Shown here: in pieces, positions 20,631 to 64,000 of the stretch
How the letters are laid out: every line of letters starts with the position of its first letter
How positions within the stretch are numbered: position 1 is the stretch's first letter
DNA from: Nitrosopumilaceae archaeon
GTDB lineage: Archaea; Thermoproteota; Nitrososphaeria; Nitrososphaerales; Nitrosopumilaceae
Length of the DNA stretch: 64,000 nucleotides
Direction of reading: 5' to 3'
NCBI GenBank assembly: GCA_965207375.1
Contig: OZ242274.1
Coordinates: 128,001-192,000, forward strand
Made by a program: the position numbers and the translations under genes
The notes under the pieces: generated by a model
Database searches by the model: none
Seen by the model: only the letters and a program-made list of their open reading frames with translations
What the model was told of the DNA's origin: nothing

Positions 20631-20736
20631 CTTCAGTAGTTAATAGGTAGAAAACTATAAAACATTTTCTATGTCAAGTTTAGTTCATATATAGATATTC
20701 TATTATAATTAAATATGTGAACATTTATGTAAAAAC

Positions 20737-23058: not shown

Positions 23059-23233
23059 TACCATCAAATGTACAGTGTATAATACACAAAATTTGTTACT
23101 GTATGATCATTTCTGTAATCTGAATCTGTTGTATACTGGTTCATTGACGTAAACTGCACCGGGGTTTTGCATGCAGTTTCATGGGTCATCTAAATCCCAG
23201 AGTAACTTCAGAAAGTCGATCTGTTACAAATAT

Positions 23234-24433
23234 TCATTGTCTTGCTGACTCAAACATTGATTCTCGTAATACCTTTTGTACTTCGTCTCGGATCATATCC
23301 CTAACTGCATCCTTTGCAATGTGGGTTTTTTCAAGCTTTGATTTTTGTTCCTGAATCTTTTCTAACTCCATCTGTTTTCTTGCTGAATCATCTATTGTCA
23401 GAAACGGAATCGCCTTTTGATACTCGGGGAACCTCTCAAAGTCCTCTTCGACATACCTCTCATAGCTTGATTCAAGACCAGTTTTGTGTCCCATCATGTC
23501 TTCTTTGTCTGCAAAGTTTATCCTTGCACGGCGCAGCATTGTGTTAAAATATTTTCGAAATCCATGATCCAACTGTACTGCGTATCTTTTCTTTCCTGGG
23601 ATCATCTTCTCCCTTATGCCTAGATGCCCGACTATTTTTTTGACCCTTCTAGACACACCCGTATGGTATAGCCTTGTGGGAAACTGGGATCTTTCTTGTA
23701 CCAACAATGGGTCAGACGGGGATGGCTCCTTCATGAATTTGTTTCTCCAATATGCCCTGTACAGGTCAAGCAGGTTGCAAAATTCTGGTGTGACATGAGT
23801 CCAGTACTCTTCGCTGTCACCACGGTATACGCGTAGTGCACCACCTTTGTATGTCCCGTCACTGTTTCTAAACAAAGTAACATCATCCCAAGTAAAGTAA
23901 TCCCATGCCTCCAGCCTAAATCCGCCTGAAGCAAATCCTACAATTATTACCTTGTCTATAATGTCCTCGCAATGTACAAGCATGCCCTGGATCTCTTCTT
24001 TTGTATATGCTCGGTCTTCACTCTTTGTATTCTTTGGTAACGACTTGTCAATTAGATACCAAGAGAACTCTATATCGTTTGAGCGCAACAGGGATTTTAT
24101 CGGTTTTATCCTGTTTCTTGCAGTGTTTGTATTGAGATCTTTTTTTTCTATCTGCTTTCTTACATACTGGACGTATCTTTTGATCTGTTCTTTGCCCTTT
24201 GTAGGATCCGTTTTCATAGATTCCACAAAATCATTTACAAGTATAGCAAGCTCGTCATCAGATAGTAGTGTTCTTTTTTGCTGTGGAAGATCCCACCTAT
24301 ATCTAGGATTAAGAAACATCTCCAACTGCCCGCGATATTTCCTTCGGGTCGCATCATCTCTTATTGCACTCATGAAATTCTCAAACGGTGTAAAGTCCCC
24401 TAACTTTTCCATGTTATAGTCATAATGACTCAT
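23234..24433 (-). CDS. Tyrosine recombinase/integrase
   Basis: SGGFR, HGFRKYF, MMGH and SSYERY catalytic motifs; directly downstream of a tRNA 3' end. Start moved to MSHYD because the longer ORF overlaps the tRNA. Confidence 0.93.
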   Translation of the reverse strand: MSHYDYNMEKLGDFTPFENFMSAIRDDATRRKYRGQLEMFLNPRYRWDLPQQKRTLLSDDELAILVNDFVESMKTDPTKGKEQIKRYVQYVRKQIEKKDLNTNTARNRIKPIKSLLRSNDIEFSWYLIDKSLPKNTKSEDRAYTKEEIQGMLVHCEDIIDKVIIVGFASGGFRLEAWDYFTWDDVTLFRNSDGTYKGGALRVYRGDSEEYWTHVTPEFCNLLDLYRAYWRNKFMKEPSPSDPLLVQERSQFPTRLYHTGVSRRVKKIVGHLGIREKMIPGKKRYAVQLDHGFRKYFNTMLRRARINFADKEDMMGHKTGLESSYERYVEEDFERFPEYQKAIPFLTIDDSARKQMELEKIQEQKSKLEKTHIAKDAVRDMIRDEVQKVLRESMFESARQ

Positions 24434-24476
24434 AGAATTATAAAAACATGGAACCAAATAAAGGAATAAAATGGTA

Positions 24477-24550
24477 TGGGCCCGAAGGGCTTCGATCCCT
24501 TGGCTCACCGATTATGAGTCGGTTACTCTACCAAGCTGAGTTACGGGCCC
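24477..24550 (-). tRNA. tRNA with CAT anticodon, probably tRNA-Ile2 (alternatively elongator Met)
   Basis: gggcccgtaactcagcttggtagagtaaccgactCATaatcggtgagccaagggatcgaagcccttcgggccca folds as a cloverleaf; the GGGCCC acceptor stem is Ile-like. Confidence 0.9.
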
Positions 24551-44956: not shown

Positions 44957-45030
44957 GGGTCTATAGCGCAGCCAGGTAGCGCACTGGCCTTTTAAGCCAG
45001 CTGTCGTGGGTCCGAATCCCACTAGACCCG
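44957..45030 (+). tRNA. tRNA-Lys(TTT)
   Basis: gggtcta..ctggc-ctTTTaa-gccag..gtgggtccgaatcccac-tagacccg. Confidence 0.92.
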
Positions 45031-45073
45031 CTTCATTTTTGACATTTAATTAGGACACGCACGAAATCTAGGC

Positions 45074-46393
45074 GTGCCAATACGACTAGACCAAAGCGAT
45101 ATTATACAGACAACAGATGATGCATTAGCATTGTTTAGTACCGGCATCAAGACCAAGGCAACAAAACAAACCTACGAAAAACGCCTCAAAGAGTTTCTGT
45201 GCGGTACTTTGGAAAATTATCTTGATGGTGATTCAGAACTGCGAGACAGGCAAAAAAAGGAACGCTTGGCCGAAGGCAGCAATGCAGAAATTGGCAAGAC
45301 TTTGGATGCAGATTTTTCAGCCAGAGCCAGTGAATTGGTAAAAAAGGCAAAAGATGACCCAGATGCAGTGATGGGTCTACTGCTTGCATATTCTTCAAAA
45401 TTAAAGGAAAGATGCGACAAGCCTGCTGAAGATCCAGATCATCTCAATCCTAATACCGTACCTAATATGTTCAAGCCAATAAAGAAACTGTTCAAAATGA
45501 ATGGTGTTCATTTTCAATGGGAACGAATTGATTCCACATACCCCGAGTCTGAGACCAATCGTGACACTAGGGGATATACGCGAGAAGAAATTACCTCTAT
45601 TCTAGGATTTGCCAATCCACTTGAAAAGGCTGCCATATACCTTGCATCCTCATCTGGTATGAGGCGAGGTGGATTTGATTTTACCTGGGACTGCATCAAA
45701 CCTGTGTACAAAAAGGATAATGATTATTTCATGGGAAATTATGATGATAATGAAACTACTGGTGTTGTGTGTGGTGTGGTTACCGTGTATGCAGGCTCTA
45801 ATGAGCAATATTTCGCAATGTTTACACCAGAGGCATGGAAGGCAATCTGTGTGTATAGAACCCAATGGCACTCTGATACATTGCAGCATCCAAAACCCAA
45901 GGATGGATTCCTAAAGCGCGCAGGTGCTCAGATAAAATTGCTCAGCTGTGATGCATTGGCAACCAGGCTCAACAAAGTACTCAAAAAAGCAAAGGTCAGA
46001 GGACCACTTGAGGCAGGCAAAAGAAACCACGAGGTGCCAATCATGAATGGATTCAGAAGATACTTTAACAAAATCAACAAGGAGACCTTTTCAAGAGATT
46101 CTCCCCTGGCATCGTTGATAAAAAAGGAGATGATGCTTAGTCATACAGGCCTGCTAAAACTTGACAAGAATTACTTTCAAACACACTGGAAGGAGCTAGT
46201 CGAAGAGTATCTGGGTGCAGTTCCTGCACTGACTGTTTCCTCGGAACAAAGAGCAAAGGCAGAAAACCAGAAATTACGTGTAGAAAAATCCGAACTTGAG
46301 GACAAGAACCAGCAGCTACAGGCCATGAAGGAAGAGATAGACAAGATTCGTCAAAGGATGGATATTGCAGATAGGTTTGACAAGAAGGCATAA
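45074..46393 (+). CDS. Tyrosine recombinase/integrase
   Basis: SSGMRRG, NGFRRYF, LSH, KNY; begins 43 bp after tRNA-Lys; C-terminal coiled coil; similar to 23234-24433. Confidence 0.9.
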   Translation: MPIRLDQSDIIQTTDDALALFSTGIKTKATKQTYEKRLKEFLCGTLENYLDGDSELRDRQKKERLAEGSNAEIGKTLDADFSARASELVKKAKDDPDAVMGLLLAYSSKLKERCDKPAEDPDHLNPNTVPNMFKPIKKLFKMNGVHFQWERIDSTYPESETNRDTRGYTREEITSILGFANPLEKAAIYLASSSGMRRGGFDFTWDCIKPVYKKDNDYFMGNYDDNETTGVVCGVVTVYAGSNEQYFAMFTPEAWKAICVYRTQWHSDTLQHPKPKDGFLKRAGAQIKLLSCDALATRLNKVLKKAKVRGPLEAGKRNHEVPIMNGFRRYFNKINKETFSRDSPLASLIKKEMMLSHTGLLKLDKNYFQTHWKELVEEYLGAVPALTVSSEQRAKAENQKLRVEKSELEDKNQQLQAMKEEIDKIRQRMDIADRFDKKA

Positions 46394-48340: not shown

Positions 48341-48629
48341 CACTCAGGATAACTTTATCAATTCTTTTACCTCGTAATTAAGCAGTTCATAATCCCACAG
48401 TATTTTTCCTGTATCAAAGCCTTGATTGAGACTTTGTGCCTTTTACATATTGTCTAGTCCAGTCTATTTAGAATATGTTCAGTATTTCTATCAAGTTTCT
48501 TTTCAATACCTACCATTGAAGGTATAAGGCTGCAGGAACTATAAGATCGTATTGTGTAATATTACCTTCACTTCAAGTCACAATCCCACTTTTCATGCAG
48601 TTTAATGAGTATCTGTTCTAGAAGATGTT

Positions 48630-48857
48630 TTATTCATACTGCATATTTTGATATGTGGAATCACCAATTCTTTGAATTTCTCCTGATTTGTTCAGTGAGT
48701 ATATTGCACTACGAATCCTATGTTTTATCTCGTTTTCTTTGATGTAAACATCTGGATGATTCACAAGTGCCTCATACAATTCTGAAAGCGTAACCTGTTT
48801 TTTATCCCGTATTACTTCCCGAACAATTCGAATCAGAGAAATGCGCTTCTGTTTCAT
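48630..48857 (-). CDS. Small winged-helix protein
   Basis: VTLSELYEAL..KHRIRSAIYSLNKSGEIQRIGDSTY. Confidence 0.7.
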   Translation of the reverse strand: MKQKRISLIRIVREVIRDKKQVTLSELYEALVNHPDVYIKENEIKHRIRSAIYSLNKSGEIQRIGDSTYQNMQYE

Positions 48858-48982
48858 TTTTTTACCATATTTACTATTTTATACGTATTATTAGAGATTT
48901 TCTAATCTATATAATAATCCCAAAAAATATGAAATGGGGGTTTCAAACAACCTAGTCTGGATTAGGTCACTCAATTCTGAAA

Positions 48983-49927
48983 TTATTGATGGAAAATAGT
49001 ATGTGAAAACAAACTAGCAGATATTCCTATCAACTGTATATCAAATTTTAAAGATGGCTCTATTCTGGTACGTGCATTATGTATTCTAAATGATATTGTC
49101 CAGCCATTATCAAAAGTTACGATTAAAATATTGTCTTGTTTTCTTTCGGTGTCAATTATCTTTCTTGGCATTTTTAGACGTGAAATTTTGTTTTTGGGTT
49201 TTATATTATTGCAAGGATAATTTAATGTTCCACACATGTTGTAGCCCTGTATTTTGGTACATTCATTATGTTTAATTATCTTGTAAAAGTCATTTTTTCC
49301 TAATAGATATTCAAGTAACAATTTTGGCACTTGGGGATTGTTTGACAAACTACACAATTCTTTTTCAAACGCATCTAGTGTAGGAATATAATATGAAGAT
49401 TCTTTGTTGTCAAGATCACGCCAGTTTTGATTTGGATTCTGTTTGAGTAGTGTTCTTATATCACCAAATATTTTACCTACACTCTTCATGTATTCATTGG
49501 AACAATTAACACCTAGCCATTCCTTCCCAAAATCTATCTTATCTGATAATCTTGAATGCTTAACTGCCGTATGATTGTTCTTTGCAGAAAACCCAATCTC
49601 CCAATTATGTACAGACCTTACCATAATCACATCCCTAACATCACCTTTTGCACCTTGTTGATCAGGCTGTATTGTTATGTGCAATTCGTCATCACTTATA
49701 GAGTGCTCAAGACGTGGTTCAAGATCTGAAATATAATCAACTGCTACACGTGCAGATTTTATGTATAGTTTTTGTTCCGTCAAGGTAAACAAGTCATAGC
49801 AGTTTTGTGCATTATAATATGATGTATTTTTTATGATTGTTATTTTTTGTCCATTATTTAGTTTGTCAAATAATTCAGTACATAGTGCATATTCAAATGC
49901 CTTTCCAGATTGCATTTGATTAGGCAT
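48983..49927 (-). CDS. HaeIII-family type II restriction endonuclease
   Basis: GKAFEYA, DQQGAKGDVRDV, IGFSAKNNHTAVKHSRLS, YLLGKNDFYK, SFRIHNA..EPSLKFDIQL. Confidence 0.88.
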   Translation of the reverse strand: MPNQMQSGKAFEYALCTELFDKLNNGQKITIIKNTSYYNAQNCYDLFTLTEQKLYIKSARVAVDYISDLEPRLEHSISDDELHITIQPDQQGAKGDVRDVIMVRSVHNWEIGFSAKNNHTAVKHSRLSDKIDFGKEWLGVNCSNEYMKSVGKIFGDIRTLLKQNPNQNWRDLDNKESSYYIPTLDAFEKELCSLSNNPQVPKLLLEYLLGKNDFYKIIKHNECTKIQGYNMCGTLNYPCNNIKPKNKISRLKMPRKIIDTERKQDNILIVTFDNGWTISFRIHNARTRIEPSLKFDIQLIGISASLFSHTIFHQ

Positions 49928-49931
49928 TTTA

Positions 49932-50702
49932 TCAATCCAGGTCGTGACTTAAAATCAAAACTTCTCTTGATTTTTTATTATTTGACATTCCGTATTTCCA
50001 TTCAGGATAATGAAAGCGATAACCATCATAAAGAGAGTGGATTTGCTTGCAGTCATTATATGACAAAATCCATCTTTTACGCTTGTGTAGTAGATTAGCC
50101 AGCGCCTCATGATCAAACCCATCATGCATATTGCCTTTATCACCATACAAACGACTTTGTATAAGATATGGTGGATCAAGATACAATAGTTTGCCCCTGT
50201 TTTTTGGGATTGATTTTGTAAAATCAGCATGTGATACTTGTAAGTTTTGAATGCTGAAATTTACAAGTCTTTCAATGGCAGATTGTGTAAAACGTGGATG
50301 GTCTGGCGACATTCCGCCTGATAGTGTGGTGCCTGAAAAAGAACATCTGTTCAGAACATAAAATATTGCCGCTCTTTCATATTTTGAATGATTCTTGTAT
50401 GTCTTTTGAAGTTTATAAAAATCCGGTCTTGACATAGGATAATATTTGGTCACAGCATCTGCTAGTCTCTTTGGGTCCTTCAAAAGACATTGCCAAAATT
50501 CTACAACAGGCTTGAAATTATCATAGCCAATTACCTTAATGCCATTATTTGCACAGAAAAGTTCAACTGAGCCTCCCCCAAAAAAAGGTGAGCAGATAAT
50601 TTTTGTATCTTGAGGTATGAAATTCGATATTTCCAAAACACCTCTTGATTTGCCACCGCAATATCTTAGTGGTGATTTTGAATGCTTTTTAACAACTTGC
50701 AT
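49932..50702 (-). CDS. Dam/D12-class N6-adenine DNA methyltransferase
   Basis: SPLRYCGGKS, SPFFGGGSV (motif I), LNRCSFSG, YLDPPY (motif IV), WILSYND, REVLI. Confidence 0.92.
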   Translation of the reverse strand: MQVVKKHSKSPLRYCGGKSRGVLEISNFIPQDTKIICSPFFGGGSVELFCANNGIKVIGYDNFKPVVEFWQCLLKDPKRLADAVTKYYPMSRPDFYKLQKTYKNHSKYERAAIFYVLNRCSFSGTTLSGGMSPDHPRFTQSAIERLVNFSIQNLQVSHADFTKSIPKNRGKLLYLDPPYLIQSRLYGDKGNMHDGFDHEALANLLHKRKRWILSYNDCKQIHSLYDGYRFHYPEWKYGMSNNKKSREVLILSHDLD

Positions 50703-50961
50703 CTGCCTTCACCCAATGATTACATTGTGAACAACATGGTATTTTCATTTTTGAGAAAAACTCATGACCGCATTCTTCACATTTTATGACCCGCCTTTTC
50801 TTTAGTTGTTCTGTATATTTTCTAGCTTTGGCCACATTTCGATACTAGATGTATACTATTTTAGTGTATATACTATACAAAAGTATACGGTTCATAAATG
50901 CATATACAATAGTATTCAAGAAACCCAAAGCGATCTAGATAAAATTAAAATATCTATTAAC

Positions 50962-52203
50962 ATGGGAGACTTTGTGAGCACCAAAATATCTACCGAAAGA
51001 AAGCAATATTATGACAAACTTCAAAGAACGCTAAAACCGAAGGAGACATACAAAGTTCCATACAAATCTAATACAGAATATACTGCACTTCCAAAATACA
51101 CAATTCCAATTGGTGATTTTCAAACAGGACTCAGATACAATCTGTATAACTCTAGAATATTAAGATCAATAGAGTTTGAAGAGTCTAAAGGTACAAAACT
51201 AGATCCATCAGATGAAGCTACTCAAAAACTAATCGAAGAAATTCTTCTCAATGACAAAAATTATTCTAGTCGTGCACCTGAAAAATTAGCAGAAGATTTA
51301 GACAACAGCGGCCAACAGGAACCTGCGATAATATCATGTGATGGGGTTATTTGGGATGGAAATAGAAGAATAGCTACAAAGAGAAATAAAAAGAGAGAGA
51401 CTGGGGATCCAAAATGGGATACAGTAAAATGTGTATTTCTTCCAGAACTTGATAAAAAACAACTGAAACTATTAGAACATCGCATTCAGATGGCACCAGA
51501 ACTTCGTGAGGATTATGACAGAATAACATTATTTCTTGATTGTAGAAAGAGAATAAGGGAAGATAAATGGACACTTGAGGAACTTGTTAATTCATTCAAA
51601 GATAGGTATACAAAAAAAGAGATTGAGGATTTTATCAAGCAAATTGACATAATAGATGAGTATTTGATACGAATAGGACGACCAAAAAATTATCCAAATA
51701 TTGGTGATAAAGGTGCCGAATTTTTTACCATCATGCAAAAACATATTGAAAAAGAGGACAAGAAATTAGGCACTAATAAGATTGATTTGGCCAAAATAAA
51801 AACGGAATTTTTTGCTGCAGCAGCACACCCTAAATCTACATATCAACATGCTCGAAATCTTGGCAAGATTTTGGCAAAAGAAGATACAAGAAAGACATAT
51901 CTTGCAAATTCCAAGATTTTCAAGGAGCATGCAAAGTACACCGTACCTGATAATGATGGAATTGAAAAAACATTTTTACCTAAATCTACAGATGATGTCA
52001 TTAAAAACATCACATCAACATCTGCTGAGATGAGTGCACGTGAAGTTGATGGACCCGAAACACTTGCAAACAAAGCATTGGACAAGCTTAATGACATCAA
52101 AGAAGAATATATTAAACAGGATGACTCTGATCTACTAAATACACTAAAACAAATTGAGAAACGCATAGTGATATTGAAGAAATACCTAAACGAAGATGTT
52201 TAA
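50962..52203 (+). CDS. ParB/Srx-like N-terminal domain protein
   Basis: YNLYNSRI, GQQEPAIISCDGVIWDGNRRIA; start moved to the ATG of MGDFV. Confidence 0.8.
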   Translation: MGDFVSTKISTERKQYYDKLQRTLKPKETYKVPYKSNTEYTALPKYTIPIGDFQTGLRYNLYNSRILRSIEFEESKGTKLDPSDEATQKLIEEILLNDKNYSSRAPEKLAEDLDNSGQQEPAIISCDGVIWDGNRRIATKRNKKRETGDPKWDTVKCVFLPELDKKQLKLLEHRIQMAPELREDYDRITLFLDCRKRIREDKWTLEELVNSFKDRYTKKEIEDFIKQIDIIDEYLIRIGRPKNYPNIGDKGAEFFTIMQKHIEKEDKKLGTNKIDLAKIKTEFFAAAAHPKSTYQHARNLGKILAKEDTRKTYLANSKIFKEHAKYTVPDNDGIEKTFLPKSTDDVIKNITSTSAEMSAREVDGPETLANKALDKLNDIKEEYIKQDDSDLLNTLKQIEKRIVILKKYLNEDV

Positions 52204-54109
52204 GATTACATATCAAAACAATGAGTTATCTGTAATCTCTAATGAATCCTTAATTCCTGTAATTAGACAATTCTTACAGGATTTTGGGTTTGAAATGTCT
52301 GGGTCACAACAGATGATTTTAAAATTAAATAAATCTCCATATCCGATAATTGAATCTGTAAAACGAATGATTGAGGAATATGGACCCATAGTATTGGATG
52401 AGGGTTGCAATAAGATAATCGATGACGAAAATACCTCGAAATTGGAATTTCAAAACATGCTTGCTGAGGCAAAATCAATCAAGCATAAAGACAAGACATA
52501 TTGGGAAAATGTTGATGTGGTCATACCTATGTTAGCACCGGATAAATCACTAAAATGGTATCAGAAAATGCCAGTACAGCATGCAGTAACGCTGGGAAAT
52601 ACTGCAAATTTTTCAGTACCTGGTTCAGGCAAAACATGGATGGGTTACTCTACATTCTTCAAGCTAAAATATGAAAAGGATGTTGTTGATAAATTACTTG
52701 TAGTCTCCCCACTTGCTGCATTTAGACCATGGGAAACAGAGTATTACTCTATGACCGGAAAGGAACCAAACATAGTTAGAATAACCGGAACCCCTAAAGA
52801 AAGAAACAGCATAATTTATAACAAAATAAATTATTCTGACATATTTTTAATATCACATACTATGGTTACCAATGAAGAGGACCATCTGATAGATATAATG
52901 AACAAGTTTAGATTTATGGTAATAGTTGACGAATCACATAACATCAAAAAACATGATGGAAAACGCGCAACTTCATTGCATAAAATTGCACTATTTGCGC
53001 GCAGACGCATGATTCTTAGCGGAACACCAATTCCAAAGAACCTTCATGATTTGTGGTCACAATTTACATTTCTATATCATGATGAATCATTGCTACACAC
53101 ATGGCCACAATATGAGCAAGAATGCAAATCAGTAAATGCCCTTAAAGACATATCCTCTAAATTGAATCCATATTTTGTAAGAGTCTCAAAGGACGTGCTG
53201 AATCTACCAAAACCTACATTTAATCCAAACAATGTCGATGGAAGACCAACAATCATTCAAATGAATCCAATACAAAGAAGAATTTATGACACTATAGCAC
53301 TCAGGATCAAGAACAATGTCGAACAGTTTCGCAGTGATGCCGTTGCCCTAGACAAATTTAGAAGAAATTCTATGATTTACCTTATAGAGGCTGCAACCGA
53401 TCCCTCACTTCTTACAAAAGATCAAACATATCCTAATGATGATATGGATGCTGAAGGTCTGGAAATGTTAGAACTTTTGGCAAAATATCCACGTCTTAGG
53501 GGTGAGCGTCCAAATAAGATAACAGAAGCAATACGTCTTGCAAAAACAACGCTTGACTCTGATGGAAAGGTCATCATTTGGTGTAGTTTCATTAATACGA
53601 TACAGAAAATATCCCAGTATTTTGATGATGCAGGACATAAATCAATTCGAATATGGGGAGATATACCGCGAGATGAGGATGTCAATGAACACTTTAACCG
53701 TGAAAGTGAAATAGAGAAATTCAAAACAGATGGCAACTATAACATACTTGTAGCAAATCCTGCATCCATGGCCGAATCTATATCCCTGCACAAAGTCTGT
53801 CACCATGCAATATATGTGGACAGGACGTTTAATGGTGCACATTACATGCAGAGTCTTGAGAGAATACACAGGGTAGGTCTGCAATCAGATGTGCACACCA
53901 AATATGACATCCTCCAGTCCGAGGCATCAATTGATCAGACAATACATGAGCGTCTTACATTAAAGCAACAAAACATGGAAAAATTTCTTAACAGCAAAGA
54001 CCTCAAAATTCATGGAACAGAAGAATTTGTCAAAGGTTTCGATGATGATTATGCAGATGACTTTAACGCCGTGATACGAGATATAAAACAACATGTCGGG
54101 TCTGTTTGA
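52196..54109 (+). CDS. SNF2-family SF2 helicase/ATPase
   Basis: PGSGKT, VVSP, VDESHNIK, LSGTP, DLWSQF, KVIIW, ESISL, QSLERIHRVG. Confidence 0.93.
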   Translation: MFKITYQNNELSVISNESLIPVIRQFLQDFGFEMSGSQQMILKLNKSPYPIIESVKRMIEEYGPIVLDEGCNKIIDDENTSKLEFQNMLAEAKSIKHKDKTYWENVDVVIPMLAPDKSLKWYQKMPVQHAVTLGNTANFSVPGSGKTWMGYSTFFKLKYEKDVVDKLLVVSPLAAFRPWETEYYSMTGKEPNIVRITGTPKERNSIIYNKINYSDIFLISHTMVTNEEDHLIDIMNKFRFMVIVDESHNIKKHDGKRATSLHKIALFARRRMILSGTPIPKNLHDLWSQFTFLYHDESLLHTWPQYEQECKSVNALKDISSKLNPYFVRVSKDVLNLPKPTFNPNNVDGRPTIIQMNPIQRRIYDTIALRIKNNVEQFRSDAVALDKFRRNSMIYLIEAATDPSLLTKDQTYPNDDMDAEGLEMLELLAKYPRLRGERPNKITEAIRLAKTTLDSDGKVIIWCSFINTIQKISQYFDDAGHKSIRIWGDIPRDEDVNEHFNRESEIEKFKTDGNYNILVANPASMAESISLHKVCHHAIYVDRTFNGAHYMQSLERIHRVGLQSDVHTKYDILQSEASIDQTIHERLTLKQQNMEKFLNSKDLKIHGTEEFVKGFDDDYADDFNAVIRDIKQHVGSV

Positions 54110-55091
54110 TCTAAATAAGATGTTGATGACGGTCCATAATTTTGGTACAGGACCAACAGAGGAGAGTTTCATACGTTTGACATATGACAGTACATATTAT
54201 TCGGAACAAACGGCCAATTTTGACGATGTACTATATGTGGCCTCATGCATGAATTTTCTGGATTTGAATGGTGACAAAATATCACTTTTACAAAACGGAT
54301 ATGACTTTATTGATTTGACATCCAAATATGACAATCACGTCATGTTGGACAGCAACGACTTGCAGAAAAAATTTGTGTTTGACTGCCTTGATACGGCATG
54401 TATCAATGACATGTGTAAAACACTATTTGAAAAATTTTACATAAATTATTCATTTGAGCCACCAACATGGAATGCTTATTTACGTTTATTTGATAATAAG
54501 GAAAGGTTCCTTCTTGACATACTTTGTGATATTGGAGTGGTATCATTTGAGAGAAAAATGGTTTGGTTAGATAATCAACATTTGAATCTGTTTTCTGTAA
54601 TGAAACATGGATTAATTGTAAACTGGAGTGAACTTTTTGAGCGCAAACAACAAGTTGGAAATCTAGGTGAGGATTTATCTATGAATTATGAGGTAAAAAG
54701 ACTAACAAATTATTGTCGTGGGGATTTGGCAGATATGATAAAACAGACAAGTCTGATTGATCCGTACGCTGGATATGACATAATGTCATTTGATGCACCT
54801 GATTCAGATGAGGATTGTCCAGATAGATTCATTGAGGTAAAGGCAACTGTTGGAACACGGCCTAATTTTTTCTGGAGTAAAAATGAAATAATCAAGGCAA
54901 AACAATACGGTACAAAATATTGGATATATCTGTGGGTAAACGTTGATAATGATTCCAGAAAATTATACTTGATACAAGATCCATACAAAAATCTATTTGA
55001 AACTGGCAATCCTATACCTGAGCCAACTACATATCTAATAGATGGAAATGTGTTGGAACATGCAAACATGGAGGCTGTAGAAACAATATGA
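54093..55091 (+). CDS. DUF3883 (NOV C-terminal) PD-(D/E)xK nuclease domain protein
   Basis: GNLGE..YEVKRL, AGYDIMSF, RFIEVKAT, FFWSKNE, YWIY. Confidence 0.88.
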   Translation: MSGLFDLNKMLMTVHNFGTGPTEESFIRLTYDSTYYSEQTANFDDVLYVASCMNFLDLNGDKISLLQNGYDFIDLTSKYDNHVMLDSNDLQKKFVFDCLDTACINDMCKTLFEKFYINYSFEPPTWNAYLRLFDNKERFLLDILCDIGVVSFERKMVWLDNQHLNLFSVMKHGLIVNWSELFERKQQVGNLGEDLSMNYEVKRLTNYCRGDLADMIKQTSLIDPYAGYDIMSFDAPDSDEDCPDRFIEVKATVGTRPNFFWSKNEIIKAKQYGTKYWIYLWVNVDNDSRKLYLIQDPYKNLFETGNPIPEPTTYLIDGNVLEHANMEAVETI

Positions 55092-55927
55092 AGTTTACAG
55101 GTTCTGGAGTAACTGCATTTGATAAGATGCAAAAATATCTAAAAACACGCAAGACTAAAACATCTACAGATACAATGAGACAATTGAAACAACACAAGTC
55201 TGACAAACCTCATAATTTGGCCAATATCAAAAACAAACTTCCAAAGTCAAAACATCGTTTTAGATTTACCAAAAAGACACCCAAAGTAACCAATGATACA
55301 ACCCACGATGCATGGAGTTCCAAAATTCGTAGGAAAATTGATAGTTTGAACTGTGATAAATCTCGAATATTTCCACTTGGCGATATTACTTTTACACCAG
55401 ATTATATCCTAAAATTATCCTATGAAGGAAAACAAATCATTGTACATATAGATCGTAATTTTACAAATTCTGCAACAGAGAAATACAAATCATTTATGGA
55501 GAAGTTCAAAACAGCCTATTACTTTATTTTAGTGGTCAGTGATAATGATCTTAGGCGTTGGAATACGACCAATATGGGACGAAGAATCCTTTTTGATGAG
55601 ATTTGGGTCGGTGAAGATGTGACAGATATGATTAAAAACATACAAAAATTATCGGAACAAACCACAAACAAAATTATGGTATGCTCTAAATGTTATAAAA
55701 AGATAGAAGGCATACAAAAAATCAAGAGTCATTTTTCATATCAAACAAAAGAAGATGGTTCTCTTTTAATTAATTCTATATGTAGAAAATGTGTGGAAAT
55801 TCCACAACCTACAATAACTCATATTCCAAAATCAACGTACAAGTGTATAGGTTGTGGTAGTGATTTTGATACTACAATAGCTTCTCAACTATATTGTGAT
55901 GTATGCAATGACAAACTACAATCATGA
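55088..55927 (+). CDS. Hypothetical protein: basic N-terminus, PD-(D/E)xK-like core and two zinc fingers
   Basis: FTPDYIL..IIVHID..EKYKSF; CSKC..CRKC and CIGC..CDVC; ATGA-coupled to the upstream gene. Confidence 0.7.
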   Translation: MKFTGSGVTAFDKMQKYLKTRKTKTSTDTMRQLKQHKSDKPHNLANIKNKLPKSKHRFRFTKKTPKVTNDTTHDAWSSKIRRKIDSLNCDKSRIFPLGDITFTPDYILKLSYEGKQIIVHIDRNFTNSATEKYKSFMEKFKTAYYFILVVSDNDLRRWNTTNMGRRILFDEIWVGEDVTDMIKNIQKLSEQTTNKIMVCSKCYKKIEGIQKIKSHFSYQTKEDGSLLINSICRKCVEIPQPTITHIPKSTYKCIGCGSDFDTTIASQLYCDVCNDKLQS

Positions 55928-55959
55928 GATTTATGTACACACTCAGGTCATAGATTTTT

Positions 55960-55982
55960 CAGGCATGAAATTTTCATGTCTG
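55960..55982. terminator. Near-perfect palindrome between convergent genes
   Basis: caggcatgaaa-t-tttcatgtctg (10/11 Watson-Crick pairs plus one G-T). Confidence 0.4.
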
Positions 55983-56009: not shown

Positions 56010-56669
56010 TCACCTTTTAGTTGACTTTTTTGGGCTTTGCAGGTGTGCTTGCTTTTTGGCAGCCTTTATCTTGTCCTTGATTTTCTTTTTGGCAAGTATC
56101 TGTTCTTTGTTCCTTTCATAGTATTCTTTTGAGCGCTTGTCAACCTTTTCCTTGTTATTCTGGTAATACTCTTTTTCTTTCTGTATAATTTTCATCTTAT
56201 TTTTTTCCCTGTTATTCATGTACTCCTTTTTGATTTTCTCTTTGTTCTTTTGATAATACTCTTTTCTATACTGTTGTAGTCTCTCCTCGTGTTCTTTGTT
56301 ATAGGCCTTTGATTTGTTTACGAGTTTCTTTTTGTTTTTTTGATAGTATTCTTGCTTTTTTTCCTTGTCCTTGCGTGCATTTGATCTTGTCTTTTCTTTA
56401 TTCTTTGTATAGTGTGCCGCCTTTTGTGCAAGTAACCTTTCTCTGTCTTTTTGATACTTTGCCTTCTTTTCTGCTAGTATCTTTTCCTTGTTTAGTTCGT
56501 ATAGTGCCTTATGATGCGCCTTGATTTTCTCCTTGTTTTTTTGATAATATTTGGCAGTGTATTGATTTTCTCGCTCTCTTAGTTCTTCGTGTTTTTCTTT
56601 ACGTTTTTCCTTGATTTTTTCTTTATTTTTCTGATAATACGCTTGATGTTGTTGGGTATAGGTAGACAT
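56010..56669 (-). CDS. Lys/Tyr-rich 15-aa repeat protein 3 (YYQKNKEKI repeats, SPKK tail)
   Basis: About 12 repeat units; ends QSPKKSTKR. Confidence 0.8.
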   Translation of the reverse strand: MSTYTQQHQAYYQKNKEKIKEKRKEKHEELRERENQYTAKYYQKNKEKIKAHHKALYELNKEKILAEKKAKYQKDRERLLAQKAAHYTKNKEKTRSNARKDKEKKQEYYQKNKKKLVNKSKAYNKEHEERLQQYRKEYYQKNKEKIKKEYMNNREKNKMKIIQKEKEYYQNNKEKVDKRSKEYYERNKEQILAKKKIKDKIKAAKKQAHLQSPKKSTKR

Positions 56670-56675
56670 GTTACC

Positions 56676-57119
56676 TCACCTCGATTTTTTGGCCTGTACC
56701 GGCTTTTTGGCTCTCTTGACAGGCTTTATCTTGGCTTTAGTCCTGGCTGCAGTTTTCTTGCCTAGTTCGTATTTTTTCTTTTTATCTGCTAGGATCTTTT
56801 CTCTGTTTAATTGATAACGTTTTTTGTATTTGGCAAGTAACTTTTCTTTATTCTTTGTATAGTATTCCTTTTTTTGCTCTAAGACCTTCTTTTTGTTCTT
56901 TATATTGTACTGTTTGTTATATTCCTTGAACCGTTCCTTGTCTGATTCGTATAGTTCTTTGTGATTTGCCTTGATTCTCTCTTTGTTCTTTTGATAATAA
57001 TCGGCGCTGATTTGATTTTCTTGTTCTTTATTTGCTGTATAATGCTTTTTGCGGTTTTTCTTGATTCTTTCCTTGTTTTTTTGATAGTAGACTTGGTGGG
57101 TTTGTGTGTAGGTAGACAT
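56676..57119 (-). CDS. Lys/Tyr-rich 15-aa repeat protein 2
   Basis: About 8 regular units; tail KAKIKPVKRAKKPVQAKKSR. Confidence 0.8.
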   Translation of the reverse strand: MSTYTQTHQVYYQKNKERIKKNRKKHYTANKEQENQISADYYQKNKERIKANHKELYESDKERFKEYNKQYNIKNKKKVLEQKKEYYTKNKEKLLAKYKKRYQLNREKILADKKKKYELGKKTAARTKAKIKPVKRAKKPVQAKKSR

Positions 57120-57124
57120 GCATG

Positions 57125-57745
57125 TTACCCCGATGTTTGCTTGATGGTTTCTTCTTTGATCTTTTGACGGTTGATTCTTGCTCGTTCTGCGATTTTTTCC
57201 TTGTTATTTTGATAGTATTCTTTTTGCTGCTTTGCAATCTTTTCTTTGTTATTTTGATATTTTACCTTGTTCTTGACACTTATCGCTTCCTTGTTCTTTG
57301 TATAGTGTTTCTTTGCTCGCTTGGCAAAATCAGCCTTGTTGTTCTGATAGTATGTCTGTGCACGTTTGACAAATTTTTCCTTGTTATTCTGATAATACTC
57401 CTTTGCACGCTTTGCAATTTCTTCCTTGTTTGCCTTGTATAGTGCTTTTTTCTTGGCGCTTAATTGGGCCTTGTTCCTTTCATAGTATTGCTTTTCTCTC
57501 TTTGTAACTTTGTCTTTATTTTTCTCCCTGTACTCTCTACTGCTTTTTTTGAATTTCTCCTTGTCATTTGCATAGTTGTTTCTATTCTTTTTTTTTATTT
57601 GCTCTTTATTTTTCTGATAATAGGTATACTGATTTTCTCGTTCTCTGAGTTCGTTGTGGTGTTTTTTGTGGTTTTCCTTTATCTTTTCTTTATTTTTCTG
57701 ATAATACTCTTGGTGTTGTTTTGTGTATGTAGTTAGTTGTTTCAA
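57125..57745 (-). CDS. Lys/Tyr-rich 15-aa repeat protein 1
   Basis: About 12 units; TTG start, LTTYTKQHQEYYQKNKEKI. Confidence 0.75.
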   Translation of the reverse strand: MKQLTTYTKQHQEYYQKNKEKIKENHKKHHNELRERENQYTYYQKNKEQIKKKNRNNYANDKEKFKKSSREYREKNKDKVTKREKQYYERNKAQLSAKKKALYKANKEEIAKRAKEYYQNNKEKFVKRAQTYYQNNKADFAKRAKKHYTKNKEAISVKNKVKYQNNKEKIAKQQKEYYQNNKEKIAERARINRQKIKEETIKQTSG

Positions 57746-57789: not shown

Positions 57790-60700
57790 CTAGTTGACAG
57801 TTATTGTGAGTTCGTTTGGTGGTGATAGTGCAGTTGGATTATCTACAGACTCCCAAACAAATGCAGTTGCAGTGTATGTTCCTGCCTCTGATGGGGTCCA
57901 TGATAATGCTGGACTAAACGACTGTGAAGGTGTCAATGTTCCTGAAACCCATGCAAGGGCTACAGTTACACTGCTACTATCCTGAATCTGTACGATGTAT
58001 GCAAATGGCTGATCTTTATCCTGACCGTTTGCTAGGTCGGCTGTAATCTGTACCTGTTGATCCACGTCGACCGTATCTAGCGTATTGCTAAATGCATCAA
58101 CTACTCTCAAGTTGGTAGCTGGTGCTCGTTCGAGTGGAGGTATGATTGAGCCAATCTGGGTTGTGGCAGTAATATCGATTTCATCTGATGTATCGTGTGG
58201 ATCAGGTAGTGTACGGTCGTTATATTCTGCAGTGACAGTGTCGCCTTCTGAAACTCTCAGTCTGTGACCGGAGGATGTATCAGATACGGTAAAGAATGCT
58301 GTGCCTTCAAAGATTCCGGTTGCCTGGTTTGTCTCAGTTACAGTCAAGTCAATACCTCCGACATCTGAATCAGACCAGACGTTAACCTCAAAGTTATCGA
58401 CTGATTCTGGATTCAAATTCATGTCTGGGTCTATTACCCTGATTACGCCTGTACCGCTAGCTGCATAGCTTGCTTCTAACCACTGAACCTCACCGATATT
58501 CCATCTGATTAGTGCTGATCCTACTACCGTTTCATCCTCTGAAAATTCAAAGGAGATAGAAAGACCATCATCGTCTTCAGTTGCTAGGAATCCGTTTGTT
58601 GGTCCTAAGTTGTCAGTTTGGCCTTTACCGTCACCGGTAATTGCTCTTGCATCGTCTTTTTCGCCGTCACCATTAGCATCGTGTGCAAATCCAGTAAGGA
58701 TTACCTCACCAGTAAAGATTCCAGTGTTAGGTCCTGTCTCAACCAGTTTGTATTGGTCAAGGTCGTCACCTCTTGTTGCAATCTTTATTGGATCGTCACC
58801 AGTATTACCTATTTCATCTACCAAGTCAGAATCGAAGTTGTGATCAGGTGCTACAATAGTTATGTAGACCTTATCAGTCCAAGTGTAAACCTTTTGGTCT
58901 AGCTCCACTGTACTGCCAAAGTTTGATGTAAAGATTGTAAGATTAATATCTTCATCTTCATCACCAACGTGGTCAGAACCAGATGGGCCCCAATCGGTAT
59001 ATTCTAGTTCGATTTCTTCACCTCTTTCGAGTTTGTCGCCGCCTAGTTCTGCAGGAACTTCGACTACAACCTGGAAGACTCCAGTGCTGTCACCTGTTTC
59101 TCTAAAGTCGGCTGGTTCTGGATCAAATGCTGCTGCATCTGTTCCATATTTACCCATACTCGTTGTGCCTGCATCTGAATCCCACTCGATTAAGTCAAGT
59201 GGATATGTCTCTGCTCCATCATTGTCAAGATCAAAGTCTGGCTCTATTAGAGTCAAGATCATGTCACTTCCAATGATGTAGACTGACTTGCCAGATTGCA
59301 GTACGGCGTTTCTTAGGTCAAATGTAGCTGAATCAGTAATTGTGTTTGGCTCACCAGATGCGTCTGTTGGATCTTCATACTGTACAGTAATAATATCTCC
59401 TTGCAGAATACATCCATCTTTGAATATGTTATTTGCAGCATTTGGATATACTGGACAATCGTTTGTAGGTCCATCATTGTAGCTGATTGGAATATCTGCT
59501 TCAAAGATTCCAGCGTCAGGTGCAATCTCTGTAATTGGACCATACTCCTTTGCAGTAGTATTTGTAGCCTCAATTACATTTTCTCCACCTGCTGTTGCAA
59601 CAATTTTAGAAGCTTGTCCTCTTGAAACAGTAACCTCGATAGGTCCTTTTGTGCCTGATGCGATTGTATCTTCACCAGAGGCTGACAAATCATAGTCAGG
59701 ATCAGAGACTCTGACATGAATTATTGCATCGCCTTGTGGCAAATATCCACTAGCACCTTCGTCCTTAAACTTGGATCCATCTGAAGTATCAATTGATGGA
59801 TGAAGTGGGAATGCATTATCTGCGAATGGAACTGGGTAAACCGTTCTGTCAAGAGATATTGAACCAGTGCTGGCTCGTACACCTGCTGAATCACCTACTT
59901 CGATGATTTCACCAGATTCGTCTCTATAGTCAAGATAGTTTACTTCAATGTCAGTACCGGTAACAGATAATCGTTTACCGTCGTCATTGTTTTCACCATT
60001 GATTTCTGTTGGACAATACATTGCTGGAATCTGGAATGAACCAGTAAAGACACCGCTTGCAGTTTCGGTTTCAATTAGTGTGAAACCTGTTTCATGTAAG
60101 CCGTCATCAGAGTTTGGATCATCTCCACACTCATTTACAGTCCATGTCTCGTCATCAAAGGTAACATCAAGTATTCGTCCTAATGGATTACCAGATTCAC
60201 TGATTGTTTTGTTAGCGCCAATTGATTTACTGTAAGACTTTGATACGTCTTTTCCGACTGTGTCGGCCAAGTCGCCGTCTTCGACTACGGTAAATATGTC
60301 AATCAAGTCACTATCCACGTTCAAGTCAGCATCAGTCAATTTGACAATCACTGTATCAGCCACCTTGTAGGATTTTGAATCAAGTGATACCACACCAGAG
60401 TGTGATGGTGCTGCTTGTTGGTCAGCAATCTGTGTTGAAACACCGTCTGCTCCTAGGTCAAGATAATTGACTCGAGGAGAGTCTTCATCTGTTAGATCCT
60501 CCATTACGATAAATGTTGGTTCATCAGATATTGGACTAAGACCTTTGTATGTATCTGCGTCTAGTATGTTGAGTTGGTTTAACATGGTGTATTCAAGGCC
60601 ACCTACAAAGGTGTCAGTGTTATCACCAGTTTCTTCCAATTCAAGTCTGACTATTTGGTTAGCTGTTCTTCCGTCATCGCCAAATCCAAATGCGAAAAAG

Positions 60701-63700
60701 TCCAATACAATTGGATCTGCTTTAGCATCAGTCTTGGCGTTAGTTTTGACGTTGTCTTTATGATATTCAATGAGTATTGCTAATTCACTGTCGTCATGAA
60801 TGTCCAAGATGTTTGTGATTGTTGCATTGTGAGTGTGTGCTTTGTCTGTTTGGTCTACCTGAACTGTTTGTCCAAAGATTTCACCAAATGAGTTGATTGC
60901 ACAGTCAATACATGATACTAACTGTGGGCTGTTCAACATTGGTATAGATGATGTAGAAGCACAAGTGTTAACTGGATCAGCTGCTTTGTATGTAAAGCTA
61001 GTAGCAGTTGCATCGTCAGCTATCTCAAGTACGTCATAGATTGTACATTCAAGATCACCGTTGGCGCCAAGAATTGTACTGTGTGTCAAGGAACTGGCAT
61101 TGTATGCACGAGCTACATCTGGCAAGATTTGCTTTAGTTGCTCGGCTGTGCCATCTTTTCCAAGTTGATCTATGGCTCGTGCCATGATTTGACCTGCGTC
61201 GTATGCGGCATATACATGCCTATCAGCATATTCGTTTCCTTGGTTGGCTATATCATGTAATTTTTTAGCGTTAGCGCTGTCTAGTGCAAACTTTATCGTT
61301 TTCATGTCTGTGGCTTTTAGCAATGCAATTCCATCAGCGTCAAGTGCTGCTGGAACGGTTGCTGCAAGGTCTGGAATGAAGATGTTTGTTGTTTCAATTC
61401 CTGTATAGATATACGTACCATTAGTGTGTGTCTTAGATAGTTCCATGATTACAGTTTCAACTTCACCAAATCCTAGAATCACAATTGCGGTGTTTGCTGC
61501 AATAGTGCCTACGTTTGCTGGGGTCAATTTGCTCATTATTTCACCTGTCAAGTCTGTTGCAGATGAATTGTATGCAATCTCTTTGTGGTTGTTACCATAT
61601 AGAGTGACTAGTTGATCTTTAAAGTCAGCACTCCATGCATCGTCGCGATGTATGGTTATGACGTTTGCAATAGTAGCATTATCTAACTGTGGCTTCAAAA
61701 CCTCAGCTGTCTGACGTTTATTGTCCATAGTTAGTCTGAATATATTGTCGTCAAGTGATAGCGTTGAAGCAGTTGAAGCATAACTTAGGAAGACAATTCT
61801 AGATTCATCCTTGTATTTTGTCAACTGTTCTGAGCTGTATGTGCCGACAACTCCTATATGTTCATCACGAACTATTGGGTCAATGTCTGCGGTAGTACCG
61901 GCAGTGATGTTATATCGTACGTCATAAATAGTCGTATTTTGTTGCCTTCTGTCTTCATTATGATAATCGCCTATGGCAATACCAAATGCTTCAAAGAATT
62001 GTTGTTCGTAGTTATCAGCTATATTAAGATACAGCATTGGAATGTTAACATCGCCAGCGTCAAAGGCTACTCTGTCTGGAATTACCACTGGAGTTGGTGC
62101 TGGTGCAGTTATTGTGATAGTAATAGATTCTCTATCAAAACCACCTTTTCCGTCACTTGCTGTAAACATTACATTGTTTGTGACACTTTCAGTTGGTGTA
62201 TTCCAAGTGAATGTGTGGCCTACTAGAGTTGATCCTGTTGGCTTACCGATCACATTGTAATTAACCCTGTCACCATCTGGATCAGGTGCAGAGAGAGTGA
62301 AGGATAGTGCTGTGCCTTCTTGGTGTGTTATATCACCGATTTCTGCCAAGACTGGAGGTCTATTTACTGTGATAGTAATAGTCTCGGAATCCATACCAGA
62401 TGCGTCAGCTGCTGTGAATGTTACTCTGTGTGTGCCTGAACTTGATGGAGTCCAAGTGAATTCACCTGTGCGGTTGTCAAATGTTACTCCTGTTAGACGT
62501 GGGGTCATATTGTAAGTAATACTGTCGCCATCTGCATCAGTTGCATTAACTGTGAAGGTCAATGTTTCATCTACGTTTACAAATTTATCACCTATTGGGT
62601 CTAAATCTGGAGCGGTGTTAGATGAGCCTCCATTGGTTTGTGCTGCATTTACGGTTATAGTAACAGTCTCTGTATCACTGCCTCCGTTACCGTCAGATAC
62701 AGTAAACAGGATGTTTACAGAACCTTGGGCTGTTGGAGTGAATGTAAAGACGTTGGCAGTGTTTGTTGGCAGTGTTTCTGCATTATCTTCTGTATAGATC
62801 AAAGTATCGCTAGTGTCAGCGTCAGTTGCTACAACAGTTAGTGTCAATGATTGACCTACTGTTACTGTTCTAGCACCGGTTACTGATGATATGACTGGAT
62901 CTGCGTTAGCTGGTGCAGTTGGAGTTGCCGGTACATTAATAGATGCTGGGCCTGTTCCTTCTGCGTTTGTTGCACTTACTTTAAAGATGTAGTTTTGATC
63001 GTTTGTGAGACCTGTTATTGTAGCGGTTGTTCCCGTTACTGTAACAGGAGTGAAGGTGTTTCCTGCATCTGCACTGTATTGTACTGTGTAGTTGAGGATT
63101 TGTGAATTGCCGTCATGTGGTTGATTCCACTCTAGTGTGACTTGAGTATCACCTACTGTAGCGTTAAGACCTGTTACTTGTTCAGGTATAGTAGCTGTTG
63201 CTGATGGAATTGCAGTATCAACATTAGATGCTGGTCCTGCTCCTTGTGCATTTGTTGCAAGTACTCGGAAGTGGTATGTTTGACCGTTAGTAAGTCCAGT
63301 TACCATAGCAGTTGTTCCAGTTACAGTTGTAGAATCAACGAAGTTAGTTCCATCAGTACTTTGTTGTACTGTATAACCTGTTGCTGGAGTACCAGTGCTT
63401 GGTGCTTTCCATTCTAGTGCAACTGCTGCGTCTCTACCTTGTGCTATAAGACCAGTTGGTGCATTAGGTTCTGCTATAGTTTTAGGACATTCAACAGCGT
63501 TAGTAGTTTCTTGTGTTGGAGTTTTAAGTGCAAATGTTCCAGAACTATCATCAATCTCAAATATGTCATAGACCATACATGCTAGGTCACCATCTGCGTT
63601 TAGCTTTGTATTGTATATCAAAGCGTTAGGACTATAATCGTTTGCTACGATTGGAATCCGTTTGTTTAGTTGTTCAGATGTGTAATCCAATTCACCATCT

Positions 63701-64000
63701 TCTGATCTAAGATCATCTATGGCTTGTGTCAGAATCTGACCTGCGTCGTATGCGGCGTATGCATGTCTGTCAAAGATGTTACCAAAACTGTCAAGATTAA
63801 CACGATCAGAAGGACTCTGATTTTGTAGAGAGGTCTTCAATGCTGTTTGATCATCAGTGTTGTCACTTAGTGCAAACTTTATCGTCTGCATGTTTGTGGC
63901 TTTTAGTAATGCAATAGCATCATCGTTTATAGTAGTACCGAATGCACCACTTGGAACATCAGGAATGATGAACTTTGTGGTCTCGATTCCTTCAAAAACA
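57790..64000 (-). CDS. Giant S-layer (SlaA-like) fusion protein with PBP type 1-like, Fn3 and Ig/cadherin-like domains; 5' end outside the window
   Basis: The C-terminal ~1000 aa show thaumarchaeal S-layer motifs (LELEETGDNT, DLTDEDSPRVNYLDLGADGV, LVETGPNTGIFTG, AFVWESVDNPTALSP). The frame stays open from 63891 to the window edge (VFEGIETTKFIIPD..LLKATNM). Confidence 0.9.
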   Translation of the reverse strand, partial: VFEGIETTKFIIPDVPSGAFGTTINDDAIALLKATNMQTIKFALSDNTDDQTALKTSLQNQSPSDRVNLDSFGNIFDRHAYAAYDAGQILTQAIDDLRSEDGELDYTSEQLNKRIPIVANDYSPNALIYNTKLNADGDLACMVYDIFEIDDSSGTFALKTPTQETTNAVECPKTIAEPNAPTGLIAQGRDAAVALEWKAPSTGTPATGYTVQQSTDGTNFVDSTTVTGTTAMVTGLTNGQTYHFRVLATNAQGAGPASNVDTAIPSATATIPEQVTGLNATVGDTQVTLEWNQPHDGNSQILNYTVQYSADAGNTFTPVTVTGTTATITGLTNDQNYIFKVSATNAEGTGPASINVPATPTAPANADPVISSVTGARTVTVGQSLTLTVVATDADTSDTLIYTEDNAETLPTNTANVFTFTPTAQGSVNILFTVSDGNGGSDTETVTITVNAAQTNGGSSNTAPDLDPIGDKFVNVDETLTFTVNATDADGDSITYNMTPRLTGVTFDNRTGEFTWTPSSSGTHRVTFTAADASGMDSETITITVNRPPVLAEIGDITHQEGTALSFTLSAPDPDGDRVNYNVIGKPTGSTLVGHTFTWNTPTESVTNNVMFTASDGKGGFDRESITITITAPAPTPVVIPDRVAFDAGDVNIPMLYLNIADNYEQQFFEAFGIAIGDYHNEDRRQQNTTIYDVRYNITAGTTADIDPIVRDEHIGVVGTYSSEQLTKYKDESRIVFLSYASTASTLSLDDNIFRLTMDNKRQTAEVLKPQLDNATIANVITIHRDDAWSADFKDQLVTLYGNNHKEIAYNSSATDLTGEIMSKLTPANVGTIAANTAIVILGFGEVETVIMELSKTHTNGTYIYTGIETTNIFIPDLAATVPAALDADGIALLKATDMKTIKFALDSANAKKLHDIANQGNEYADRHVYAAYDAGQIMARAIDQLGKDGTAEQLKQILPDVARAYNASSLTHSTILGANGDLECTIYDVLEIADDATATSFTYKAADPVNTCASTSSIPMLNSPQLVSCIDCAINSFGEIFGQTVQVDQTDKAHTHNATITNILDIHDDSELAILIEYHKDNVKTNAKTDAKADPIVLDFFAFGFGDDGRTANQIVRLELEETGDNTDTFVGGLEYTMLNQLNILDADTYKGLSPISDEPTFIVMEDLTDEDSPRVNYLDLGADGVSTQIADQQAAPSHSGVVSLDSKSYKVADTVIVKLTDADLNVDSDLIDIFTVVEDGDLADTVGKDVSKSYSKSIGANKTISESGNPLGRILDVTFDDETWTVNECGDDPNSDDGLHETGFTLIETETASGVFTGSFQIPAMYCPTEINGENNDDGKRLSVTGTDIEVNYLDYRDESGEIIEVGDSAGVRASTGSISLDRTVYPVPFADNAFPLHPSIDTSDGSKFKDEGASGYLPQGDAIIHVRVSDPDYDLSASGEDTIASGTKGPIEVTVSRGQASKIVATAGGENVIEATNTTAKEYGPITEIAPDAGIFEADIPISYNDGPTNDCPVYPNAANNIFKDGCILQGDIITVQYEDPTDASGEPNTITDSATFDLRNAVLQSGKSVYIIGSDMILTLIEPDFDLDNDGAETYPLDLIEWDSDAGTTSMGKYGTDAAAFDPEPADFRETGDSTGVFQVVVEVPAELGGDKLERGEEIELEYTDWGPSGSDHVGDEDEDINLTIFTSNFGSTVELDQKVYTWTDKVYITIVAPDHNFDSDLVDEIGNTGDDPIKIATRGDDLDQYKLVETGPNTGIFTGEVILTGFAHDANGDGEKDDARAITGDGKGQTDNLGPTNGFLATEDDDGLSISFEFSEDETVVGSALIRWNIGEVQWLEASYAASGTGVIRVIDPDMNLNPESVDNFEVNVWSDSDVGGIDLTVTETNQATGIFEGTAFFTVSDTSSGHRLRVSEGDTVTAEYNDRTLPDPHDTSDEIDITATTQIGSIIPPLERAPATNLRVVDAFSNTLDTVDVDQQVQITADLANGQDKDQPFAYIVQIQDSSSVTVALAWVSGTLTPSQSFSPALSWTPSEAGTYTATAFVWESVDNPTALSPPNELTITVN

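Follow-up and report, generated by a model that had tools for sequence, protein, structure and literature searches.

The 64,000-nucleotide stretch of contig OZ242274.1 analysed here (positions 128,001 to 192,000 of Nitrosopumilaceae archaeon assembly GCA_965207375.1; hereafter the window) carries, at positions 50962 to 55927, an operon whose first three genes encode a ParB-fold protein, an SNF2-family ATPase and a PD-(D/E)xK nuclease. Folds, family assignments and gene order support the preliminary description of these genes as a conserved defence-type module. With moderate confidence, we interpret it as an AbiR-like restriction module, driven by ATP and guarded by a methylase, which would destroy unmarked foreign DNA. 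This interpretation builds on established features of the locus, namely its folds, the intact motifs of genes 1-3, the gene order, the linkage to DNA methylases and the homology to loci with the layout of AbiR.

The operon and its conserved core

The operon comprises four co-oriented open reading frames (ORFs) on the forward strand with overlaps of 8, 17 and 4 bp, an arrangement reported in the preliminary description and confirmed from the ORF coordinates. Gene 1 (50962..52203, 413 aa) encodes an AbiRb-like protein of predicted ParB/Srx fold, with an N-terminal ParB domain, a helix-turn-helix (HTH) at residues ~183-235 and a helical C-terminus; its ATG start at 50962 matches homologues of ~410 aa, and an upstream TTG at 50806 does not. 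No Pfam, PADLOC, NCBIfam or PDB-sequence family was found for gene 1, and the only profile matches in its alignment (A2) were weak ones to ddrB-ParB (14/113 rows) and PD-Lambda-5_A (6/113); relatives at E ≤ 0.001 number 797 among 50% clusters. The AlphaFold2 model (pLDDT 93.5) has its best fold match in pNOB8 ParB (5K5D; Z 8.7, root-mean-square deviation (rmsd) 4.2, 209 residues aligned), followed by PadC (Z 8.4), KorB (8.2) and Spo0J (7.8), and Foldseek returned a Myxococcus ParB (E 3e-4). Residues N134, R135 and R136 of the [ND]GNRR motif are kept in 113/113 rows of A2. The ParB N-terminal fold of the model, together with this arginine-patch motif, places gene 1 among ParB/Srx proteins, from which we infer that it may bind and hydrolyse nucleoside triphosphates and clamp DNA.

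Gene 2 (52196..54109, 637 aa) encodes an SNF2-family ATPase (PF00176, E 1e-21, plus PF00271) that resembles AbiRc without its PLD domain. Gene 3 (54093..55091, 332 aa) encodes a nuclease composed of a winged helix (residues 1-86), a second helical region and a C-terminal NOV_C/DUF3883 PD-(D/E)xK domain (176-332), the latter identified by PF13020 (E 2.4e-16; 60 bits against a cut-off of 22.1) and by residues E193, D229, E248 and K250, which form the E..D..ExK signature and are invariant in 40/40 rows (alignment A4). According to the accessible text of the Tiamat preprint (10.64898/2026.09.30.754977), NOV_C is a PD-(D/E)xK nuclease domain whose HmaA copy nicks DNA. The gene 3 model (pLDDT 86) matches winged HTH (wHTH) proteins as well as Hjc, I-Ssp6803I and NhoI, all tied at Z 8-9.5 (NhoI: Z 9.2, rmsd 5.2, 124 aligned). 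Intact motifs are DGNRR in gene 1, PGSGKT, DESH and QSLERIHRVG in gene 2, and the NOV_C ExK in gene 3.

The preliminary description counted gene 4 (55088..55927, 279 aa) as part of the system; a core role is not supported for this gene, which combines a nuclease-like domain of apparently degenerate motif with two Cys zinc ribbons. It has no Pfam, PADLOC or NCBIfam family, one database relative, and weak Atlas leads, under 0.9, to Vsr/DUF559/TnsA-like clusters. Its PD is kept, but HxDR replaces the ExHE seen in the three homologues, so that, judging from these four sequences, the nuclease site appears not to be intact. Full-length gene 4 occurs in 4/401 family genomes, each time as the fourth gene, those same four having built the model, and its sequence distribution points to a clade-restricted accessory.

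A contig from a public run covers 48514-55964 with zero differences; it is possibly the window's own source and hence not independent. In run X1 a single contig of depth 71 holds the operon together with the neighbouring restriction-modification (R-M) pair, while the flank reaches 203, and in run X3 the depth of this cassette is about 2-11 versus 30; the lower cassette depth is a weak hint of variable carriage. A promoter scan gave results at chance level.

To assess how far the gene order is conserved, we scored 111 loci: 7 from 26 plasmid matches, 22 family regions (from all 21 positive genomes among 400), 76 from a motif scan of species genomes (among the matches listed, and biased to one motif), 5 from 10 Streptococcaceae matches, and the window. 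Eight short duplicate loci, 38 that lacked flanks and 4 duplicates had been removed before scoring. The ParB-SNF2-NOV_C trio was found in 45 of the 111 loci (30 from the motif scan, among the matches listed, 12 from the family, 2 from plasmids, and the window); its carriers, archaea as well as bacteria of many phyla, bear more than 15 phylum labels. The three-gene order recurs, with genes 1-3 as its core. The other loci comprise 13 with ParB and a PLD-SNF2 fusion, 25 ParB-SNF2 pairs, 12 with ParB and a sigma-like protein but no SNF2, 7 other or cut off, and 9 without a strong ParB match. A metagenome scan produced 103 pattern matches, of which 0 were confirmed.

The window groups with three loci (L025, L026 and L028) in both the SNF2 tree (support 100/99) and the ParB tree (95/86), and all four members carry gene 4, a small wHTH gene and an M.CbeI-like methylase gene. 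An approximately unbiased (AU) test on 14 family SNF2s did not reject a single clade (p 0.135), and repeated acquisition is therefore not supported.

Several variants accompany these loci. A subfamily without SNF2 (L044, L046, L051, L065, L089, L090, L099, L107, L108) has a Swt1-like HEPN fused to the ParB-like protein (Pfam run on L107 and L046), followed by a ~1000-aa RNAP-alpha-CTD/Sigma70_r4 (AbiRa-like) protein and often a HIRAN protein, and is possibly an RNase-armed relative of AbiR. ParB-SNF2 pairs without a nuclease gene stand directly after type III R-M genes in L004, L005, L159 and the L038 group, and the pairs of Collinsella have an AbiRa-like domain upstream and GmrSD downstream. 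Eight loci (L040, L067, L071, L096, L098, L103, L106, L117) are ParB-SNF2-D12 methylase operons with no adjoining NOV_C gene. Two ParB-like paralogues occur in each of L017, L021, L022 and L023, one of those in L023 being fused to Mrr_N, and a UvrD plus PD-(D/E)xK gene of ~1030 aa lies near the module in L024, L025, L026, L028 and L032.

Relation to AbiR and other systems

The preliminary description knew of no named relative, but genes 1 and 2 prove homologous to genes of AbiR-layout loci. In the accessible text of a 2026 review (PMC13064643), AbiR of Lactococcus lactis pKR223 consists of a sigma70-like AbiRa, a ParB-like AbiRb, matched like gene 1 to 5K5D, and an endonuclease-SNF2 AbiRc; it requires the methylase M.LlaKR2I, being toxic without it, and has a reported anti-phage phenotype, described as abortive, of unclear mechanism. 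Block of phage DNA replication is a further trait of AbiR. The tie between AbiR and R-M is noted in the accessible portion of PMC3632139, and that of PMC12278908 has AbiRc tracked in DefenseFinder. A search from a plasmid homologue led to P0294 (AAF75618.1), a protein labelled 'unknown' from L. lactis bv. diacetylactis that is 61% identical to the middle gene of L157; from the organism and this identity it is presumably AbiRb. The gene order of L157 (a Sigma70_r4 gene, a ParB-like gene, a PLD-SNF2 gene, a C5 methylase and a MutH-family nuclease) corresponds, as judged from sequence, to the AbiR layout.

Gene 1 aligns to P0294 with 28% identity over 199 aa (E 1e-14), an AbiRb-like feature, and gene 2 to the SNF2 of L157, taken here in place of AbiRc, with 28% over 545 aa (E 5e-52), sharing with it the signatures [ND]FSVPGxGKT and QSx[DE]RIHRxG. 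As in AbiR, the ParB-like gene directly precedes the SNF2 gene and a DNA methylase with its restriction enzyme adjoins, but the window methylase is an M.CbeI-like, putatively m4C (N4-methylcytosine) enzyme where AbiR has a C5 enzyme. The operon contains no sigma70-like AbiRa ORF, and the AbiRa-like protein of L157, used as the one query, found no match in G000 at E 0.01. Gene 2 shows no PLD match, whereas the L157 SNF2 measures 850 aa and carries PF13091. Instead of the fused PLD the window has a separate wHTH-NOV_C nuclease, as well as the extra gene 4; its host is an archaeon, and it falls in separate clades from AbiR in the SNF2 and ParB trees. Because the AbiRa-like and PLD parts are absent, membership in AbiR fails and likeness holds: the locus appears to be an AbiR-like variant, not AbiR.

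A PLD-less AbiRb/AbiRc pair without AbiRa is already in print for SAR11 AG-313-A04 (PMC13712998); by its description, with which alone the comparison was made, that operon shares ParB-like and SNF2 genes and the lack of AbiRa and of the AbiRc terminal domain, but the accessible text mentions neither a NOV_C gene nor a methylase link and assigns no function. No paper describing the NOV_C-plus-methylase form was found in a literature search covering open-access papers, largely their main text, and the accessible portions of PMC3710099, PMC12839542 and PMC10853773 do not describe the module. The PADLOC 2.0 scan returned no AbiR profile and, in line with the preliminary description, only single-domain matches to the module. 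Genes 2 or 3 share such matches with Zorya ZorD, DISARM DrmD, Dpd DpdE, Hma, Tiamat, PD-T4-1 and PDC-S36, but NCBIfam scores fall far below cut-off and none of these systems models gene 1. Partner genes of these systems and of Pbe had no match among the 11 island proteins scanned.

Methylase linkage and proposed mechanism

The operon itself contains no methylase, as the preliminary description stated, but this does not extend to its surroundings, where a methylase is the most constant neighbour. In the window, a divergent R-M pair begins 259 bp upstream of gene 1 and consists of an M.CbeI-like alpha-class methyltransferase (49932..50702, reverse strand; PF02086) and, 4 bp away, a CbeI-like HaeIII-family restriction endonuclease (48983..49927, reverse strand; PF09556, E 5e-96). 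The best PDB match of the methylase is 7M6B, which is M.CbeI (E 7e-34; DpnM only 6e-8), and M.CbeI is given as an m4C enzyme for GGCC in the accessible texts of PMC8616854 and PMC3425538; the window enzyme thus probably makes GGm4CC, not m6A (N6-methyladenine), and is the likely self-protecting partner of the module. A HaeIII-family nuclease beside an alpha-class DPPY methylase is also the composition of CbeI/M.CbeI of Caldicellulosiruptor bescii, to which the pair belongs by both components, but the parallel covers the divergent pair only, and GGCC specificity in the window is deduced from it.

Across the scored loci, a methylase lies within 1.5 kb in 37/45 trios, and in 31/37 of those with both flanks long enough. 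Methylase density is 0.72 per kb in the nearest 500 bp and 0.017 per kb between 1.5 and 9 kb away, and by neighbour rank methylases make up 30/83 first, 10/78 second and 5/213 third to seventh neighbours. The profiles were built from these same neighbours, with Pfam confirming the classes. Partner enzymes include SPPY beta-class methylases (best match M.PvuII), two D12 groups and C5 enzymes. An M.CbeI-like gene adjoins the module in all four members of the window clade, in differing arrangements; the neighbouring copy of L026 is truncated, with an intact one ~16 kb upstream. On the ParB tree, loci with the same class of methylase tend to group together (10 changes versus at least 25 in shuffles; 53 rows), which can be explained by kinship alone.

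In the mechanism that we propose, the M.CbeI-like enzyme would convert GGCC sites of the host to GGm4CC. Where invading DNA is unmarked, the ParB-fold protein would bind a nucleotide, probably CTP or ATP, and clamp the DNA, upon which the SNF2 motor would load and translocate, and the NOV_C nuclease, replacing the fused PLD of AbiR, would nick or cut. Without the methylase the module would turn on its host, as AbiR reportedly does. In the window the trio may back up the HaeIII-type enzyme, gene 4 could be dispensable or an adaptor, and candidate site readers are the ParB HTH, the wHTH of the nuclease or the methylase itself.

The same linkage could arise if the methylase protein or its activity restrained the trio, with host DNA being degraded when a virus inhibits R-M, an abortive, guard-like arrangement that we consider unlikely. 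The description of AbiR as abortive and toxic without its methylase (PMC13064643, accessible text) would fit such an arrangement, as would the failure to find a conserved site reader. Against this, distinct methylase families occur even inside one SNF2 clade, which makes a common contact surface unlikely and speaks for a DNA mark, more than a protein surface, as what they share, and 28/37 trio-plus-methylase loci lack, up to 3 kb away, any recognised separate restriction enzyme (as judged with a small profile set) that could be guarded; both observations count in favour of methylase-guarded restriction.

Less probable still is a Type IV-like, modification-dependent restriction of foreign-marked DNA, which comes near the idea of the preliminary description, the methylases being mere island neighbours. 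The wHTH plus PD-(D/E)xK architecture of gene 3 agrees with it, as does the presence of NhoI, a methyl-dependent enzyme, among the tied fold matches; in addition, a small winged-helix gene (48630..48857, reverse strand) with a weak DpnI_C match (E 0.006, below cut-off) travels with the window clade, having homologues in L025, L026 and L028. Methylase frequency, however, falls sharply past the second neighbour, and AbiR is toxic in the absence of its methylase (PMC13064643, accessible text). Of the marks that the preliminary description had the ParB protein read, phosphorothioate (PT) is rejected because the dnd genes (532-2972) lie 48 kb away, outside the element that holds the operon, which also argues against a Type IV-like role, and m6A because the best match of the neighbouring methylase is the m4C enzyme M.CbeI.

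We likewise give little credence to the trio as an accessory to classical R-M, in which ParB-SNF2 would load at breaks or bound sites of the neighbouring restriction enzyme and extend degradation: nuclease-less pairs directly behind type III R-M genes and the intact HaeIII-family gene of the window agree with it, and the 28/37 loci that lack a recognised restriction enzyme nearby (small profile set) speak against it. Maintenance of the element by partition or addiction is highly improbable, the plasmid ParB as closest fold, the mobile location and the reduced cassette depth in run X1 being outweighed by the lack of a ParA partner in the operon, the constancy of SNF2, nuclease and methylase neighbours, and the anti-phage phenotype of AbiR (PMC13064643, accessible text), with addiction also a possible by-product of restriction.

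Several observations weigh against methylase-guarded restriction itself. AbiR counts as an abortive infection system and not as a restriction system (PMC13064643, accessible text); in 25 loci the ParB-SNF2 pair stands without either nuclease next to it; 6/37 well-flanked trios lack a methylase up to 1.5 kb away; and M.CbeI-like genes occur in 41/401 family genomes, mostly without the trio. The methylase enrichment is partly circular, given the origin of the profiles, and kin share neighbours. No reader domain clearly co-varied with the methylase: within a same-methylase clade the nuclease N-terminus is 12-19% identical, the ParB HTH is 18-41% identical, and no site reader was found in either. 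GGCC is hardly avoided (genome observed/expected 0.95; 13 sites in the modules versus 15.4 expected), and the site-avoidance analysis yielded no target site.

A broader proposal, which we advance only tentatively, is that ParB-like and SNF2 proteins form the core of an undescribed restriction class, in which a nucleotide-gated ParB clamp would license the motor on unmethylated DNA, nucleases (PLD, NOV_C) and methylases (C5, alpha-m4C, beta-m4C) would be exchangeable, and AbiR would be one misfiled member.

Host element and implications

The operon and its R-M pair lie in an integrase-headed island, as first described, the integrase label being inferred. A tRNA-Lys gene (44957-45031, forward strand) is followed by an integrase-like ORF (45074..46393, forward strand) with no Pfam or NCBIfam match, labelled from its position, from the attachment (att) repeat and from similar ORFs found elsewhere, including one next to tRNA-Met. 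The 20-bp repeat of the tRNA-Lys 3' end (45014-45033) recurs identically at C1:209609-209628, 36.6 kb downstream, and bounds a 36.6-kb element containing the operon. GC is about 0.33-0.36, versus 0.38-0.44 on the left flank. By gene content, the host appears to be an ammonia-oxidising archaeon.

Other features of the window include dndB, a dndC-like gene and the start of a dndD-like gene beside an HNH protein (2-4132), and a second island (17367-24550), which comprises a gene for a D5-type primase/helicase, transposase-like ORFs and, at tRNA-Met, an integrase-like ORF. Downstream of the operon stand three tandem Lys/Tyr-rich repeat ORFs (56010-57745) without Pfam match, which have more copies in the genome and whose joints vary in public runs, and a 2949-aa gene (57790-64000, continuing to 66639) inside the att-bounded element.

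The mechanism of AbiR has been open since 2000. If our interpretation is true, AbiR would be one branch of a cross-domain, methylase-guarded family that none of the models applied from PADLOC, Pfam and NCBIfam calls, and the ParB-type switch would gain a role in restriction. The locus offers a sharp test, because the protecting mark (GGm4CC) is predictable, and enlarges the defence inventory of ammonia-oxidising archaea.

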